From Candidatus Aenigmatarchaeota archaeon (GTDB lineage: Archaea > Aenigmatarchaeota > Aenigmatarchaeia > GW2011-AR5 > JAHLMP01): a stretch of DNA of 32,428 nucleotides. The DNA is taken from contig JAGGUE010000057.1 of NCBI GenBank assembly GCA_021158665.1, positions 1-32,428 of the forward strand, read 5' to 3'. The stretch's first letter is position 1; every line of letters starts with the position of its first letter. This document shows positions 3,681 to 20,957 of the stretch, piece by piece. Position numbers and translations under genes: made by a program. The notes beneath the pieces are model-generated. The model ran no database searches, was not told the origin of the DNA, and worked only from the letters and a program-made list of their open reading frames with translations.

Positions 3681-3800
3681 TTCTCATTTAAGATTTTAAT
3701 TTATTTAAGTAAGGTATATAAATAACATGGGCCTGTAGCTCAGTCTGGTAGAGCGTTCGAATTTATGGCGATGCTCTTAACCGAACGGTCGCGGGTTCGA

Positions 3801-4308
3801 AATACCTTTCTCTCTTAAAAAGAGAGAAAGACTATCGGAAAGAGAGAAATTCGGGCGAAAAATCAAAAGATTTTTCGCATATATTATTGAGAGAAAGACC
3901 ATTGGAAAATCGCAGGAGGAGTTCAACAAAAGAAGATAAAATAATTGAACTCCGACGAGAAGAGAGCAGGAGGTTTTTGCTAAATAGAAAATAAAATAAC
4001 AGAAACCGACGAGAAGAGAGCAGGAAGAGTTCGCCAATTACAAATAATATAAAAGTGAACTCCGACGAGAATCGCAGGAGGTTTTCGCCAATTTATAAAT
4101 AATATAAAAGCCGAAAACCGACGAGAACGGAGAAAAAATTCGGGCGAAAAATCAAAAGATTTTTCGCACATAATTAAGAAAAAGACCAAAGGAAAAAAAT
4201 ATCTTGTTATAATTAATAAAAAAATAATATATGCGAATGAAATGAGCCAAAGTCTTTCTTTTTCCGCAAGTCTTTTTCTTTCTCTGAAAGAAAAAGGTTG
4301 AACGAGAA
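3801..4308 (+). other. giant modular T-loop intron/insert of tRNA-Lys (family shared with tRNA-Val)
   Basis: The 5' 47 nt (ATACCTTTCTCTCTTAAAAAGAGAGAAAGACTATCGGAAAGAGAGAA) are identical to the start of the insert in tRNA-Val. About 110 nt at the 3' end are near-identical. The interior contains 2 A-modules and 4 B-modules. Terminal hairpins lie at 3805-3829 (11 bp) and 4272-4296 (10 bp). Confidence 0.7.
3905..4126 (+). repeat. tandem array of four 54-56-nt hairpin modules (B-modules) inside the tRNA-Lys insert
   Basis: CCGACGAGAA recurs at 3951, 4005, 4061 and 4117, and GCAGGAG/GCAGGAA at 3911, 3965, 4019 and 4073. Each unit is GCAGGA + 8-9-bp stem + AT-rich 18-20-nt loop + stem + CCGACGAGAA. 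The stem sequences differ between units but stay complementary. Confidence 0.8.
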
Positions 4309-4349
4309 TCCCGTCGGGCCCACTTATTTTCTAAACCAGAGGGACTTGC

Positions 4350-5258
4350 ATGTTAATGGATTCTGAAAATCTCAGAGAGCTTATTAATATTGTGAGCAAA
4401 CGGTCTAAACATAAATCAAAGATATTATTGCAGATACCCGAAGGGCTAAAATGCAATGTCATTGAAATAATAGATAACCTGAAAAGGTTGGGGCATGACG
4501 TGGTTTTGTCAGCCGAGCCATGCTACGGAGCTTGTGATATAAGGGACTATGAAGCAAAAAAAATGGGTTGCGATCTTATTCTTCATCTCGGGCATAGGAA
4601 ATTCTATAAGAAATTTAAGACAATTGTTCCAGTAATCTACTTCCCAATAAAATTGAGTGTAAAATATAATCCGGTTGAACTTAAAAAAATTTCATACAAA
4701 AAAATAGGCCTTATATCCACGGTCCATCATGTTGAAACGTTAAAAGACATTTCGAGGGATTTGAAAAATATTGGCAAGAGCTCTGTAATCGGCGGTGAGA
4801 TACTTGGCTGCTACACAAAAAACGCGTCTAAAATAGAAAAAAACGTCGACTGTTTTCTATTTGTTGGTAGCGGGGAGTTCCATGCGTCTGGACTTGTAAC
4901 GGAAAAGCCCGTTTATATTTTTGATTTGGAAAAAAATAAAGTTAGGTTAATAAATAAAATGAAAAGATTGAAAATATTGCATGCCAATTTGGCAAAATTA
5001 GATGATGCAAAAAAAATTGGAATCTTGATTTCAACAAAAAAAGGTCAATTCTTTGATTTAAATAGAATTGAAAAATTAAAAAATAAGTTGAAAAAAATGA
5101 ATAAAAAAGCATACGTCTTAGTTATGGACAACATAACAAATGAAAAACTAACCGGGCTAAAGATTGACTATTTTATAAATACGGCATGCCCGAGAATAGT
5201 TGAAGACGGGTTTGACAAGCCAGTTATAAACGCGCGCGACCTTTTCGGGAGTATATAG
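4350..5258 (+). CDS. dph2: diphthamide synthesis enzyme Dph2 (2-(3-amino-3-carboxypropyl)histidine synthase)
   Basis: 302 aa. The LQIPEGLK motif, conserved Cys residues (EPCYGACD, TACPR) and the length are typical of archaeal Dph2. Confidence 0.8.
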   Translation: MLMDSENLRELINIVSKRSKHKSKILLQIPEGLKCNVIEIIDNLKRLGHDVVLSAEPCYGACDIRDYEAKKMGCDLILHLGHRKFYKKFKTIVPVIYFPIKLSVKYNPVELKKISYKKIGLISTVHHVETLKDISRDLKNIGKSSVIGGEILGCYTKNASKIEKNVDCFLFVGSGEFHASGLVTEKPVYIFDLEKNKVRLINKMKRLKILHANLAKLDDAKKIGILISTKKGQFFDLNRIEKLKNKLKKMNKKAYVLVMDNITNEKLTGLKIDYFINTACPRIVEDGFDKPVINARDLFGSI

Positions 5259-5875: not shown

Positions 5876-5876
5876 T
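5865..5876 (+). repeat. direct repeat, left copy (CGCTTGATGCAT; 3' end of tRNA-Gly)
   Basis: The exact 12-mer recurs at 7255-7266. Degenerate partial copies are at 5887-5900 (GTTCGATGCATGGG) and 5921-5932. Confidence 0.7.
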
Positions 5877-6008
5877 AGGTCAGAAAGTTCGATGCATGGG
5901 CATGGTTAATAAGCCATCCGGTGCATGGTGCTTTTATGTCTGATATACACAATTACAGATTAAAACTTGAACGAGGGATGAAATTAGTAAAAAAAGGGTT
6001 CTAACATC

Positions 6009-6212
6009 TCAAAGAAAAACGGGCAAGACGAGCGCGTATTTCGGTTTTCTTGTTCTCAGATACAGATAGCCCATAACCCAGATTGTTGTCAGAATAGCAA
6101 TAATAGGATAGCCAACCTCTGGATTTGCGAGGCAGAAACGCATGAGCGGGTTGCCCTCTATCTCCGGACCCTTTCTTTCTCTCCCTTCTTGACTGCTGGT
6201 CACTTTAAGCAT
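6009..6212 (-). CDS. hypothetical small membrane protein
   Basis: 67-aa ORF with an ATG start and one C-terminal TM segment. It overlaps the end of the NYN ORF by 13 nt. I recognise no homology. Confidence 0.2.
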   Translation of the reverse strand: MLKVTSSQEGRERKGPEIEGNPLMRFCLANPEVGYPIIAILTTIWVMGYLYLRTRKPKYALVLPVFL

Positions 6213-6855
6213 TCTCTTATCAATAAATTTGCACTTAAAACAAAAAACTTTACTCTTTGCCTGAGTTCATACGCATAGCCTCTGGTTAAAAAGGCACTAA
6301 ATACTTTCTTTCCATTCTTTTTTATCAAATCTAATACGGGAATAAAATCTGCGTCACCGGAAATTAAAATACAGCAATCGCATTTATTCTGAACTACACT
6401 TAAATTAAGCATATCTATTGCTATCATTACATCTATACCTTTCTCTCTCTTTTTGATATTACCTATACAATCAAAACACATACTCTCAACTATTGGTTTG
6501 CATTTATCGCACAAATCTAAAGTAGATAATATTTCTTTCTTTTCCTGCAAAACCTCATGAGTAGAACTTCTTTGTAGTTTTCTTGTCTTAACATCAAATT
6601 TTGGCAATCTCTCAATTTCATTCAAGAATTTCATATGAGAATGATACATTCCTTTTCCATCTTCAATGCTTGGAACAGAGTTGTAATATATAGATTTTTT
6701 ATGAACACAATTAAAATGGAAGCATACTCACTTAATTTATAGAAATCTATATAACTTGGTTTTATTTTCATAAGTTTTACATTGTGATAAAAGTTATTTC
6801 CATCTATAAACACAAATGCCTTTGTTGGCCTAACTTCAGCTGGCATATTATTCAC
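6200..6855 (-). pseudogene. NYN/LabA-like (DUF88) domain gene interrupted by a single-base frameshift
   Basis: ORF 6631-6855 encodes the NYN N-terminus (AFVFIDGNNFYHN...KLSEYAS). The rest continues in another frame (..HFNCVHKKSIYYNSVPSIEDGKGMYHSH.. EKGIDVMIAIDML .. ILISGDADFIPVLDLIKKNGKKV), which opens just after a TGA near 6722. The frame change maps to about 6710-6725. Confidence 0.7.
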
Positions 6856-7254
6856 TTATTAATTAATAGAAGTAGAAACAATAAAAATCAAAATTAATTA
6901 TAAGAAAACCCAGCATTCCTCTGCCGAGCAGAGTCATACTGGGGACTTAATAATTTGTTATTGGCAGAGAAACTATTTAAAAATTTTTATTCATTTACTT
7001 TAATATATATTTTAAATTCTATTTCTAAAAACGGTTACAGTTGCCAGAAATCAGACGCAGACCTTAGCAAAAGAAAATCTGGCAAAGGTTTCGGAAATTG
7101 CAAGAGAGAGCATGATACGGGGACTAACCCTGTTAAAAGAAATTAACAATGAGAGCGATAAAAGACTGAAAGAAAAAATGGAAAAAGCCAAAAAAGAAAT
7201 AAAAAGTTTAAGAAAATAGTATAAATAGATGCATTGCATTTTCTCTACGTTGCA

Positions 7255-7266
7255 CGCTTGATGCAT
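7255..7266 (+). repeat. direct repeat, right copy (CGCTTGATGCAT)
   Basis: Exact 12-nt match to 5865-5876. A further 2 of the 3 nt immediately upstream also match (cAcgctt versus cCcgctt). Confidence 0.7.
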
Positions 7267-8611: not shown

Positions 8612-9101
8612 TGGGTCCGGGGAGATTTCCGTTCAACCTTTTTCTTTCAGAGAAAGAAAAAGACTCTGGTTCATTTCATTCGCATATATTTATTTATATT
8701 GTAATTATAACAAGACTTTTTTTCCTTTGGTCTTTTTCTTACCGTTCTCGTTGGAGTTCACTTTTTATATTATTTATAATTGGTGAACTCTTCCTGCGAT
8801 TCCGATAGTCTTTTTCTTTTCTTTTTAATATATGCGAAACGAAGTTTCGCCCGAATTTCTCTCTTTCCGATAGTCTTTCTCTCAATAATATATGCGAAAA
8901 ATCTTTTGATTTTTCGCCCAATTTTTTTCTTTTTCCTTTGGTCTTTCTTTTTAATACTTTTTAATAATATATGCGAAACGAAGTTTCGCCTGAACTTCTC
9001 TCTTTCCGATAGTCTTTCTCTCTTTTTAAGAGAGAAAGGTATTTCGAACTCCCGACCTTTGCCACGTCAAGGCAACGTCATAGCCACTAGACCACGGACC
9101 C
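8612..9101 (-). tRNA. tRNA-Val(GAC) with an approximately 417-nt insertion/intron in the T-loop (about 59/60)
   Basis: Minus-strand reading: acceptor GGGTCCG/CGGACCC+A, anticodon arm TTGCC TTGACGT GGCAA, variable AGGTC. The T-stem is GGGAG (9053-9049) / CTCCC (8624-8620). The T-loop is TTCGAA (9048-9043) plus T (8625). Confidence 0.8.
8626..9042 (-). other. giant modular T-loop intron/insert of tRNA-Val (same family as in tRNA-Lys)
   Basis: It has the same 47-nt 5' end and the same 3' segment as the tRNA-Lys insert. The interior has 3 A-modules (hairpins 8834-8850, 8894-8917, 8973-8989) and 1 B-module (8744-8803). The 5' terminal hairpin is at 9014-9038. Confidence 0.7.
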
Positions 9102-9291: not shown

Positions 9292-10389
9292 TTATATAAT
9301 TTTCACCGCTTCCAGTATTTTTTCGGCTTCCGCTCTCGTAATGTTTATTTCGTTTAAGACCGTATATCTTTCCCTGACTCGTTTTGCGTTTACCAGGGCA
9401 TCTATTAAAATATCTTCTTTTATTCCTATCTCTTTTGAATTCGTCGGCAACCCGAGCCTTATCATCATGTCCCTGACTTTTTGCCATACATCGCCACGCA
9501 AATCGCGAACCGGCGTTGGTCCGTTCCGTTTCTCGCCTTCAGTAGTCTTGCACGCCTTTCGTTGACCTTGCAAATAAGTCATGACAATAGTCCCAAGCGC
9601 GCACTGCTCGCCGTGCAGGGCATTTGCGCCGAGCGAGTCGAGTGCGTGGGAAAAGTTGTGTTCGCTTCCGGAGCATGGCCTGGAAGAGCCGTATATGTTC
9701 ATTGCAAAACCGGAGCATATCAAACTCCAGAGCAAAATTTCCAGGCCGTGATAATTCTTTTCTCTTATGTCATCTATATGGTTTATCACTCCCCTGCTTG
9801 ACAACAACGCCAACTCCGCCATTAATGTATGATACTTTTCCTTTCCCTTCTCTGCCGCGAGTTTCCAGTCCTCCACCGCCGAGATATTGGAAATCAGATC
9901 TCCGGCTCCGGACGCTATCAGTCTGTAAGGCGCCTTTTTTATCGTGTCCAAATCGCCTATTATTGCTATCGGCTCTGTTGCATCGACAGAAGTCCTGAAC
10001 CCGTTTGAAGTTATGCTCGCGCGCGAAGAGACGACGCCGTCATGGGACAACGCCGTCGGAAATGCTATCCACGGCTTTTTCGCCAGAAACGACGAATACT
10101 TTGCCACGTCAATGCTCCTCCCGCCGCCGAGCCCGATCGTGAAATCAAATTGTTTTATTTTTTCCGACAATCGTTCCAGATATTTTTTTTCTATTGATTC
10201 CGGCTTTATGATTTCCACGTCAAATGAGTTTGAAAGAATATCTTTGATTTTAAAACCGATCACCCTTCCGACGTTTTCATTGCAAATCATCGCAATTTTT
10301 TTGCCGAGTCTCATTTCTTTTAATAAGGCTTCTATCTCACCCTCCACCGACCTCTCGATCAGAATTTTATATGGGAAGTTTATTATCAT
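9292..10389 (-). CDS. egsA: glycerol-1-phosphate dehydrogenase [NAD(P)+]
   Basis: 365 aa with the iron-ADH/DHQS-like fold motifs GLGGGRSIDVAKY, PTALSHDG and SGSEHNFSHALD, which match G1PDH. There is an apparent insertion of about 20 aa (RKACKTTEGEKRNGPTPVRDLR) before the C-terminal helices. Confidence 0.75.
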   Translation of the reverse strand: MIINFPYKILIERSVEGEIEALLKEMRLGKKIAMICNENVGRVIGFKIKDILSNSFDVEIIKPESIEKKYLERLSEKIKQFDFTIGLGGGRSIDVAKYSSFLAKKPWIAFPTALSHDGVVSSRASITSNGFRTSVDATEPIAIIGDLDTIKKAPYRLIASGAGDLISNISAVEDWKLAAEKGKEKYHTLMAELALLSSRGVINHIDDIREKNYHGLEILLWSLICSGFAMNIYGSSRPCSGSEHNFSHALDSLGANALHGEQCALGTIVMTYLQGQRKACKTTEGEKRNGPTPVRDLRGDVWQKVRDMMIRLGLPTNSKEIGIKEDILIDALVNAKRVRERYTVLNEINITRAEAEKILEAVKII

Positions 10390-19863: not shown

Positions 19864-19947
19864 GGGCCGGTAGTCGAACGGCAAGACGCTGCCTTCGCAT
19901 TTTTCCGAAACAGGCAGAGATTCCGAGTTCGATTCTCGGCCGGTCCA
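19864..19947 (+). tRNA. tRNA-Ala(CGC) with a canonical 12-nt intron at 37/38 (19900-19911)
   Basis: The acceptor GGGCCGG/CCGGTCC+A gives the G3:U70 Ala identity pair. Anticodon arm CTGCC TTCGCA[tttttccgaaac]A GGCAG, T-arm CCGAG TTCGATT CTCGG. Confidence 0.9.
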
Positions 19948-20868: not shown

Positions 20869-20957
20869 TGGGCGAGGGGAGATTTGAACTCCCGACCTCT
20901 CGGTATCTGATATTTAAATTATCAGCCGAGCGCTCCACCAGGCTAAGCTACCCGCCC
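20869..20957 (-). tRNA. tRNA-Ile(GAU) with a canonical 15-nt intron at 37/38 (20905-20919)
   Basis: Minus-strand reading: acceptor GGGCGGG/CTCGCCC+A, anticodon arm CTCGG CTGATA[atttaaatatcagat]A CCGAG, T-arm GGGAG TTCAAAT CTCCC. Its 3' end abuts the nadK stop. Confidence 0.9.

Follow-up and report, generated by a model that had tools for sequence, protein, structure and literature searches.

What kind of element is formed by a tandem array of short hairpins, and whether its stems are maintained at the level of RNA or of DNA, is the question raised by positions 3912-4127 of contig JAGGUE010000057.1 from a Candidatus Aenigmatarchaeota archaeon (assembly GCA_021158665.1), the whole 32,428 nucleotides of which are referred to here as the window. 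Judged from its sequence and that of its relatives, the array forms the variable centre of an archaeal tRNA intron of a kind not described before, and its units are best explained, with a probability of roughly 0.55, as self-folding modules of a young, recombining and probably mobile or selfish intron family, not as a conserved functional RNA.

The array consists of four head-to-tail units of 50-54 nt with the invariant frame GCAGGA...GACGAGAA, the unit starts lying 54 nt apart (3912, 3966, 4020, 4074) and the unit ends 54, 56 and 56 nt apart (3961, 4015, 4071, 4127). Tandem Repeats Finder reports the array with a period of 56 and a score of 155, and all four occurrences of the exact word CGACGAGAA in the 32-kb window fall within the array. 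Each unit is built from a stem of 8-9 bp and an A/U-rich loop of 18-25 nt, with closure by a tandem G.A/A.G step and a G:C pair, and in comparison with dinucleotide shuffles each folds as this hairpin with z-scores of -2.3 to -4.8; folding of the complementary strand of the units is about equally good. The units had been pointed out in a sequence-only reading of the stretch, and its description of four tandem units that share a frame and differ in their complementary stems is borne out, including the quoted stems, the single G-U pair in each of units 2 and 3 and the GAGTTCAC/GTGAACTC stem of the unit found in a tRNA-Val gene.

A long intron in the T-loop of tRNA genes

The array sits inside a tRNA-Lys(CUU) gene that in its unspliced form was overlooked by ARAGORN and by the Rfam tRNA model. 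Cutting by the 2nd/3rd-bulge-nucleotide rule restores the 7-nt T-loop TTCGAAT, which places the intron at tRNA position 59/60 (Table 1). In the splice motif the T-stem constitutes the outer helix and TTCG/CGAG a 4-bp central helix between two 3-nt bulges, and the inner helix ACCTTT/AAAGGT has an offset of 3-4 unpaired nucleotides in the 3' strand, which makes this a relaxed form of the bulge-helix-bulge motif. The same tRNA-Lys 5' exon was found in the independent assemblies L033 and L034. A second intron, of ~13 nt (aatttatggcgat), lies in the anticodon stem of this gene at ~3760-3772 (+) and is confirmed in the same two independent contigs; with both introns removed in silico, ARAGORN reads tRNA-Lys(ctt).

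Apart from the Lys locus, a homologous intron interrupts tRNA-Val(GAC) of the window, a gene likewise overlooked by ARAGORN and Rfam in its unspliced form. A gapped pattern from another intron module matched long contigs in the JGI metagenome Ga0190306 that belong to a sister genome; its coding flanks share 95-96% identity with the window, and ten more of its tRNA genes hold the same intron family at exactly 59/60. The family comprises 12 complete introns of 182-541 nt with 0-4 units each. In silico intron removal yields a tRNA recognised by ARAGORN in 11 of the 12 members, the Lys and Val genes of the window included, and the sister hosts read in this way are, among others, Pro(TGG), Pro(CGG), Leu, Ala(TGC), Gly(TCC), Lys(UUU) and Val(GAC). 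Orientation follows the host tRNA in each of the 26 units and 12 complete introns. The central helix tracks the host T-loop in 12 of 12 introns: the partner strand is CGAG, CGAA or CGGA in the eight introns with TTCG hosts and TGAA or TGGA in the four with TTCA hosts, G57 being matched by C in the former and A57 by T in the latter. This covariation between intron and host strongly supports the proposed splicing model.

According to protein domain annotation, the gene content of the window includes eRF1, Dph2 and a splicing endonuclease. It is that of an archaeon, and those Dph2 homologues to which a name is attached come from Aenigmatarchaeota, a DPANN lineage. The splicing endonuclease matches the ARMAN-2 epsilon2 EndA structure PDB 4FZ2 over its full length (E = 6e-107) and is the enzyme expected to excise these non-canonical introns. 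Endonucleases of the epsilon2 type have a broad specificity and cut non-canonical relaxed motifs (PMC5829648, PMC3239211), their substrates including relaxed motifs without one outer helix (PMC5829648). In 2018 the type was described as restricted to Micrarchaeota as then known (PMC5829648); the one observed here belongs to an Aenigmatarchaeote with many non-canonical introns. Elsewhere in the window, an 84-nt 'tRNA-???' with a 4-nt anticodon (tttt) reported by ARAGORN at 19864-19947 (+) and an 89-nt tRNA found by Rfam and not called by ARAGORN at 20869-20957 (-) are probably further intron-containing tRNA genes.

The Lys intron as a whole is a chain of hairpin modules, made up of terminal hairpins, purine-rich linkers, a module H1 that is present twice, the central unit array and an A/T-rich stretch, and the RNA of the whole intron folds with z = -7.9. 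The outer ~50-90 nt of both intron ends are inverted repeats, with arms of 53 nt that show 72% complementarity in the window, as against near-perfect arms in L001 and L010. Among the other copies the terminal hairpin occurs in at least three sequence variants, each of them perfectly complementary. For H1, three variants are seen in the introns of L008-L027, again with perfect complementarity, except that the variant GCTCGCTTCGCTCGC of L001 and L013 forms no hairpin. In the sister genome, the minus-strand Val intron of L022 carries an extra insertion of ~60 nt with two small hairpins in the loop of its 5'-terminal hairpin (~5090-5150). A stretch of the beta-unit loop in the window (3985-3994, TAGAAAATAA) is complementary to the tRNA-Lys trailer at 4324-4333; this was judged a chance match, as it is AT-rich and 10 nt long and other hosts have no such match.

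Several known element classes were considered for the array. Neither the units nor the intron correspond to an Rfam family, at gathering scores or at E-values up to 10. A box C/D or H/ACA guide small RNA (sRNA) was rejected on the grounds that the units contain no C box (RUGAUGA), D box (CUGA) or ACA elements and have no Rfam match. A CRISPR array was rejected as well, the apparent spacers being four recurrent hairpin types that are reused across many loci; a weak CRISPR-DR54 match sits on the terminal hairpin, below threshold and on the opposite strand.

Two scans of a genome collection of 185,579 species, one with the terminal hairpin word and one with a gapped H1 pattern, gave just two chance bacterial matches, which indicates that the lineage is not among the species representatives, and none of the viral contigs scanned matched the inter-unit junction. 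A covariance model of the units, whose construction the sequence-only reading had suggested, detected further copies solely inside these introns in the 182 kb searched. In more distant relatives (64-66% Dph2 identity) the syntenic tRNA-Lys lacks a T-loop intron, which suggests that the invasion was recent. The protein database holds no Dph2 homologues between 96% and 66% identity, so that deeper covariation is not obtainable, and no description of introns of this kind was found in the literature searched.

Two solo half-elements were observed outside tRNA genes. One, in L013 (4759-4857), consists of the terminal hairpin, linker and the H1 variant GCAAAAAATC/GATTTTTTGC and is situated between the 23S rRNA, whose 3' end it directly follows, and the RNase P RNA. 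With ~5 kb as compared with a model of 2,987 nt, the gene for 23S rRNA (L013, 4862-9849) carries ~2 kb of inserts. The other, in L017 (5158-5248), is inverted and lies between two RNA polymerase subunit genes (region 5151-5255), bordered on either side by GGTGATG, a 7-nt direct repeat that may be a target-site duplication.

Table 1. Positions of the intron-containing tRNA genes, their modules and the splicing endonuclease in the window, followed by the four unit subtypes.
Feature	Position	Strand	Sequence elements	Basis or remark
tRNA-Lys(CUU) 5' exon, positions 1-59	3729-3801	+		Read directly from sequence
5' half of splice motif	3796-3802	+	Central-helix strand TTCG (T54-G57; 3796-3799), 3-nt bulge AAA	Predicted cut after 3801
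Bulge-helix-bulge-type intron, 507 nt, tRNA position 59/60 (T-loop)	3802-4308	+		Hairpin modules; ends are ~53-nt inverted repeats
5'-terminal hairpin	3806-3830	+	CTTTCTCTCTT-AAA-AAGAGAGAAAG	Inverted-repeat search
Hairpin module H1, copy 1	3855-3878	+	GCGAAAAATC-AAAA-GATTTTTCGC	Recurs in other introns with compensated variants
Unit 1 (subtype alpha)	3912-3961	+	Stem GGAGTTCAA/TTGAACTCC	TC at 3910-3911 completes TCG
Unit 2 (subtype beta)	3966-4015	+	Stem GGTTTTTG/CAGAAACC, one U.G	Without TCG partner
Unit 3 (subtype gamma)	4020-4071	+	Stem GAGTTCGC/GTGAACTC, one G.U	Without TCG partner
Unit 4 (subtype delta)	4074-4127	+	Stem GGTTTTCG/CGAAAACC	TC at 4072-4073 completes TCG
Hairpin module H1, copy 2	4144-4167	+		Repeat search
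3'-terminal hairpin	4272-4296	+	CTTTTTCTTTC-TCT-GAAAGAAAAAG	Inverted-repeat search
3' half of splice motif	4303-4309	+	Central-helix strand CGAG (4303-4306), 3-nt bulge AAT	Predicted cut after 4308
tRNA-Lys 3' exon, T60 to discriminator A73	4309-4322	+	TCCCGTCGGGCCCA	
tRNA-Val(GAC) exons	~9043-9101 and 8612-8625	-		
Homologous intron, 417 nt, at 59/60 of tRNA-Val(GAC)	8626-9042	-		ARAGORN reads tRNA-Val(gac) after in silico splicing
Single gamma unit of the Val intron	8745-8797	-	Stem GAGTTCAC/GTGAACTC	3' frame AACGAGAA in place of GACGAGAA
Three-unit (epsilon2-type) tRNA splicing endonuclease, 410 aa	15044-16276	-		Pfam tRNA_int_endo N- and C-terminal domains
Subtype alpha			Stem GGAGTTCAA/TTGAACTCC	Loop family common to beta
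Subtype beta			Stem GGTTTTTG/CAGAAACC	Loop family common to alpha
Subtype gamma			Stem AGAGTTCAC/GTGAACTCT	Loop family common to delta
Subtype delta			Stem GGTTTTCG/CGAAAACC	Loop family common to gamma

Unit turnover and stem covariation

The module content of orthologous introns differs between close relatives. In the window the Lys intron holds alpha-beta-gamma-delta and in the sister contig L022 beta-gamma with half a delta; the Val intron holds gamma in the window, alpha, gamma, delta and beta in L022, and delta with alpha in a contig whose flank is 99.85% identical. The 182-nt intron of L023 contains no unit, which makes the units dispensable for splicing. Expansion and contraction had already been proposed from the copy number of four in one host tRNA and one in the other; that proposal was correct, and it now extends to a range of 0-4 units and to differing orthologous loci. 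Identical copies of the beta unit occur in six sister-genome introns, and one variant copy in L024. An independent assembly across the four-unit array of the window, looked for by way of neighbouring proteins, was not found, the Dph2 protein not being on record and the contigs reached via the L37e and permease genes either breaking in the intron or being chimeric; the adjacencies alpha-beta, beta-gamma and gamma-delta are each seen independently in long sister-genome contigs.

Variation extends to the exons. Upstream of Dph2, the orthologous locus has the 5' exon of Lys(CUU), with the small intron, in the window (3729-3801), L033 and L034, and that of Lys(UUU) in L022 (~1358-1417) and L028 (~1379-1440). 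The 3' exon of this locus is identical in the window and L022, L028 has a tRNA-Val 3' exon, and L033 and L034 break inside the intron. On comparison of these contigs, the differences look like a 5' exon exchange through the common intron. Two contigs combine exons of different tRNAs, L020 (1478-1810) a Val-TAC 5' exon joined through the intron to a Leu 3' exon and L028 (1379-1860) a Lys-UUU 5' exon joined in the same manner to a Val-GAC 3' exon, which would be either repeat-caused assembly chimeras or products of genuine recombination or inversion among copies of the intron. A segment of ~1.4 kb of the window (5876-7255) is without counterpart in the otherwise collinear L022, representing an indel between close relatives.

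Stem covariation was assessed on an alignment of 26 complete units; four more were found in L028 and L029. The 9-bp stem is 94% paired over this set and six of its nine pairs differ on both sides, while in a control with the partner strand slid by 1-3 columns pairing falls to 31-46%; RNAalifold independently recovers the identical stem. Between the subtype consensuses there are ~5 compensated substitutions (three for alpha versus delta, two for alpha versus gamma) and no uncompensated ones, a pattern that would be hard to obtain without a pairing constraint. Given the stems and loops listed in Table 1, stem kinships (alpha-gamma, beta-delta) cross loop kinships (alpha-beta, gamma-delta).

It is very improbable that the array is a neutral minisatellite, that is, a set of junk tandem duplicates whose covariation reflects merely two unrelated founder palindromes in the same frame. 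Such an origin would be in line with the even spread of within-subtype substitutions over stem, loop and frame, with the near-clonal state of the copies, with the persistence of half-units and hybrid units and with the dispensability of the units for splicing, but the alpha and delta stems align with five identical pairs and three fully compensated differences, alpha and gamma contribute two more, uncompensated differences between the subtype consensuses are absent and the other hairpin modules of the intron behave alike.

Whether the pairing constraint acts on RNA is less clear-cut. A test for strand bias, comparing G.U with A.C mismatches, was uninformative, with ~6 events against 2 in the unit stems and 42 against 45, hence no RNA-strand bias, in the long inverted-repeat arms. 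Folding of the opposite strand was likewise discarded as a strand test, since the z-scores are similar and thermodynamics does not single out a functional strand. The sequence-only reading had taken the compensatory variation as a signature of selection at the RNA level. What stands is that the stems vary and yet stay complementary, as supported by the pairing, the double changes and RNAalifold; selection at the RNA level is not established, considering the few events, the G.U and A.C counts, the equally well folding minus strand and the unbiased arms.

By their mismatches, the inverted-repeat arms look more like a DNA-level inverted duplication than like a maintained RNA helix. A DNA-level repeat would consist of palindromic MITE-, REP- or PATE-like modules that are recognised in, or generated by processes acting on, DNA and are merely tolerated in the transcript, since the element inserts at sites from which splicing removes it, and besides the lack of strand bias it could draw on the terminal inverted repeats, near-perfect in two of the contigs, on the solo half-elements outside tRNA genes in either orientation and on the equal folding of both unit strands. 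It is nonetheless improbable: the units and complete introns are without exception co-oriented with their hosts and placed exactly at 59/60, none of the 12 tRNA sites shows a target-site duplication, and the 3' strand of the intron complements the host T-loop instead of copying it directly, covarying with it also in the non-palindromic case of TTCA/TGAA. For the same reason a reading of the tRNA sites themselves as target-site duplications was rejected, as the TTCA/TGAA hosts display complementarity and not duplication. In addition, the units occur in direct orientation only, no transposase gene was seen beside any copy, and no known DNA process preserves the complementarity of 8-9-bp arms over a 20-nt loop through substitutions.

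In the preferred explanation, that of a young and recombining intron family, the units are self-folding stem-loops that would form the variable central array of lineage-specific, very long non-coding introns at 59/60. As every unit has the orientation of its host tRNA, they would be transcribed within the pre-tRNA, from which the epsilon2-type endonuclease would excise the whole intron by cutting at the 4-bp helix that T54-R57 forms with the YGRR strand of the intron and that the two 3-nt bulges flank. The pattern of variation suggests that the array grows, shrinks and reshuffles by recombination or slippage at the frames (...GACGAGAA-N2-4-GCAGGA...) as well as by exchanges that involve the intron copies of different tRNA genes. 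Stem complementarity would be retained because each module must fold locally, and local folding might in turn keep the 0.2-0.5-kb insert compact and away from the tRNA body and splice helix and let the splice sites meet.

This explanation must be taken with caution on several counts. The structural-insulation role is one that we infer and that is compatible with the data. The copies of a subtype are near-identical within a genome and the independent events are few (four subtypes), so that two or three founder palindromes might account for part of the covariation. Some units have a broken stem, namely by a C.A mismatch in L027 and by A.C at the stem base of both gamma units of the window, the 3' strand is missing from several half-units, and L020 contains a hybrid delta/gamma unit with a broken stem. 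Part of the differences between assemblies may be short-read artefacts, with L020 and L028 as chimeric contigs and several contigs ending inside the intron, although the window is already distinct from the long Ga0190306 contigs. Finally, the strict invariance of the frames, including the GAA beyond the helix, is left unexplained by local folding alone.

Unit frames as possible kink-turns or splice half-sites

A kink-turn (k-turn) is defined by a 3-nt bulge, G.A and A.G pairs directly 3' of it and a Watson-Crick C helix on its 5' side (PMC5061560). The sequence-only reading had recognised such a layout, TCG-CAG-GA...GA-CGA, in units 1 and 4 and its absence from units 2 and 3, correctly in both respects, and the Val unit has the motif too. 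Over the whole set, CAG-GA stands opposite GA, the 5' GA being found in all 26 units and the 3' GA in 25. The TCG/CGA C helix, 3 bp long, is found in 21 units, with no covariation; the five units that lack it are those joined to the previous unit by a GAGA or GGA linker and have a non-pairing GAG or AGA instead.

It is possible, if unlikely, that the units are modules of a ribonucleoprotein, each a k-turn with TCG/CGA as C helix, CAG as bulge, the G.A/A.G pairs and the stem as NC helix, for which binding of L7Ae would be predicted. The excised, probably circularised intron or the pre-tRNA would then carry an L7Ae array, with stabilisation, help in folding or titration of L7Ae as possible consequences. 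The agreement of 21 of 26 units with the simple definition (PMC5061560), the near-complete retention of GA on both strands and the low chance expectation for a 5+2 asymmetric loop in a fixed register all argue for it. Against this, a C helix of 3 bp that never covaries and is replaced in five units is a weak element, and RNAalifold favours another register, without a bulge beside the G.A pairs, in which G12:C65 closes a symmetric 2x2 GA/GA loop and which fits all 26 units. Natural variants moreover hit the k-turn core, ACAGGA in L024 (-1b G to A) and AACGAGAA in the Val unit of the window (2n G to A).

The 3b:3n pair in the units is G:C, A:U or G.U. In the k-turns of U4 small nuclear RNA (snRNA) and box C/D RNAs, this pair is of the Watson-Crick type. 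According to the 3b:3n rule, a Watson-Crick or wobble pair predicts folding with protein only and not with Mg2+ alone (PMC4382518), so that protein-dependent folding, as in box C/D k-turns, is predicted for the putative k-turn of the units and speaks in its favour. A precedent for k-turns in archaeal tRNA introns is the box C/D RNA of the tRNA-Trp intron (cited in PMC4090602). The 0-4 units per intron, on the other hand, imply that a fixed stoichiometry is not needed, box C/D and H/ACA elements and an Rfam match are missing from the units, and the frames also resemble splice-junction sequences. What the sequence-only reading offered tentatively as a kink-turn matches the definition in its formal layout; a kink-turn is not established, in view of the short non-covarying helix, the alternative register and the core variants. 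The k-turn is thus a legitimate hypothesis, present only formally in the sequence and unproven.

The resemblance to splice junctions concerns both frames. The 3' frame of the units, GACGAGAA^TC (the caret marks the junction), is identical to the true 3' splice strand of the L022a Lys intron (GGTATGACGAGAA^TCCCG), and with the Lys intron of the window it has CGAG-AA^T in common. The inter-unit junction ACGAGAATCGCAGGAG recurs with one deletion, as ACGAGA(A)TCGCAGGAG, at the 3' junction of a small anticodon-loop intron of tRNA-Ala in L013, where GCAGG is a strand of the anticodon stem; this is its sole occurrence outside the units in 186 kb, with ~0.07 expected. The similarity between frames and splice sites reaches p = 0.001-0.04 in shuffle tests, statistics that are modest and were computed post hoc. 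In L013 (~10262-10300), the end of the tRNA-Ala(TGC) intron, ...TTACGAGAT^CGCAGGAGATT, is observed to match the tandem-unit junction CGACGAGAAT^CGCAGGAGGTT nearly throughout.

By this similarity, the frames may be relics or mimics of splice half-sites, composed of helix strand, 3-nt bulge and helix strand, and such an origin would explain the invariant GAA after CGA, unlike the k-turn. In the pseudo-splice-site modules envisaged, the helix would be TCG/CGA(G), the 5' bulge CAG and the 3' bulge AAN. Two forms are conceivable: the epsilon2 enzyme would cut each unit to release ~54-nt hairpin RNAs, which the ligase RtcB could circularise, or the frames would merely be evolutionary relics of nested or duplicated splice junctions. 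The two forms jointly have a small chance of being correct. Identity of the 3' frame with a real splice strand, the recurrence in L013 and the acceptance of relaxed motifs without one outer helix by epsilon2 enzymes (PMC5829648) are consistent with either form, yet the helix has 3 bp and not 4, no outer helix exists past the 3' bulge, five units have no helix at all, the G.A/A.G step between bulge and stem is foreign to known splice motifs and the similarity was noticed with the statistical limits given above.

More generally, it is quite unlikely that the units are autonomous RNA modules derived from tRNA introns, be it as protein-dependent k-turns or as relaxed splice-site mimics. If this were true, the excised intron would be a multivalent L7Ae-binding and probably circular RNA, or would be diced by the epsilon2 endonuclease to hairpin or circular RNAs of ~54 nt, and the tRNA genes of this DPANN lineage would double as a platform from which a new class of small RNA is expressed, its dosage set by a fast-evolving array. 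Binding of L7Ae to a k-turn or endonuclease processing of single units, if true, would raise the interest of the system considerably.

Comparison with known systems

At the sequence level, the units resemble k-turns such as Kt-7, the 5' stem-loop of U4 snRNA and those of box C/D RNAs in the 3-nt bulge, the G.A/A.G pairs, the short helix on the 5' side and the Watson-Crick 3b:3n pair. In contrast to these k-turns, their C helix has 3 bp, is missing from about one unit in five and does not covary, and there is no tertiary or guide context. With the box C/D sRNA of the tRNA-Trp intron of Euryarchaeota they have in common that a structured RNA with putative k-turns is carried in an archaeal tRNA intron and would be set free from it; the units differ from it in having neither C (RUGAUGA) and D (CUGA) boxes nor a guide or an Rfam match, and in being tandem, variable in number and located in the T-loop instead of the anticodon loop.

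Among DNA repeats, MITE elements and the bacterial REP/BIME hairpin clusters are comparable as dispersed, non-coding modular hairpin repeats with variable copy number, concerted evolution within a genome and terminal inverted repeats. Unlike such elements, the complete copies described here occupy a single nucleotide position of tRNA genes, in one orientation and with a splice helix matched to the host, the tRNA sites have no target-site duplication, the units are direct repeats and no associated transposase was seen.

Related in type are the non-canonical archaeal tRNA introns of Thermoproteales and ARMAN/Micrarchaeota, for which 'intron transposition' has been put forward (Sugahara 2008; Fujishima 2010; as reviewed in PMC4033280 and PMC4090602). 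The mode of spread of archaeal tRNA introns is an open question; such transposition has so far been inferred from sequence similarity only. The present family, 2-5 times longer than the described size, visibly modular and located at one T-loop position in at least 12 tRNA genes, differs in composition between strains at 95-100% flank identity and would thereby catch intron movement close to real time. It offers substrates for studying intron movement and recombination, the acceptance range of epsilon2 endonucleases, and L7Ae binding or further processing of hairpin arrays. Standard tRNA finders miss these genes, and apparent tRNA deficits in DPANN archaea may therefore partly be annotation gaps.

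Taken together, the introns agree with known non-canonical archaeal introns in being of the protein-spliced type and outside the anticodon loop, in having relatives across the tRNA species of one lineage and in combining a relaxed splice motif with a co-occurring broad-specificity endonuclease, here of the epsilon2 type. They differ in length (182-541 nt, as compared with the 'less than 100 nt' given for archaeal tRNA introns in PMC4033280), in their confinement to 59/60, in their repeated hairpin modules, long terminal inverted repeats and internal tandem array, and in a module content that varies between strains with 95-100% identical flanks.

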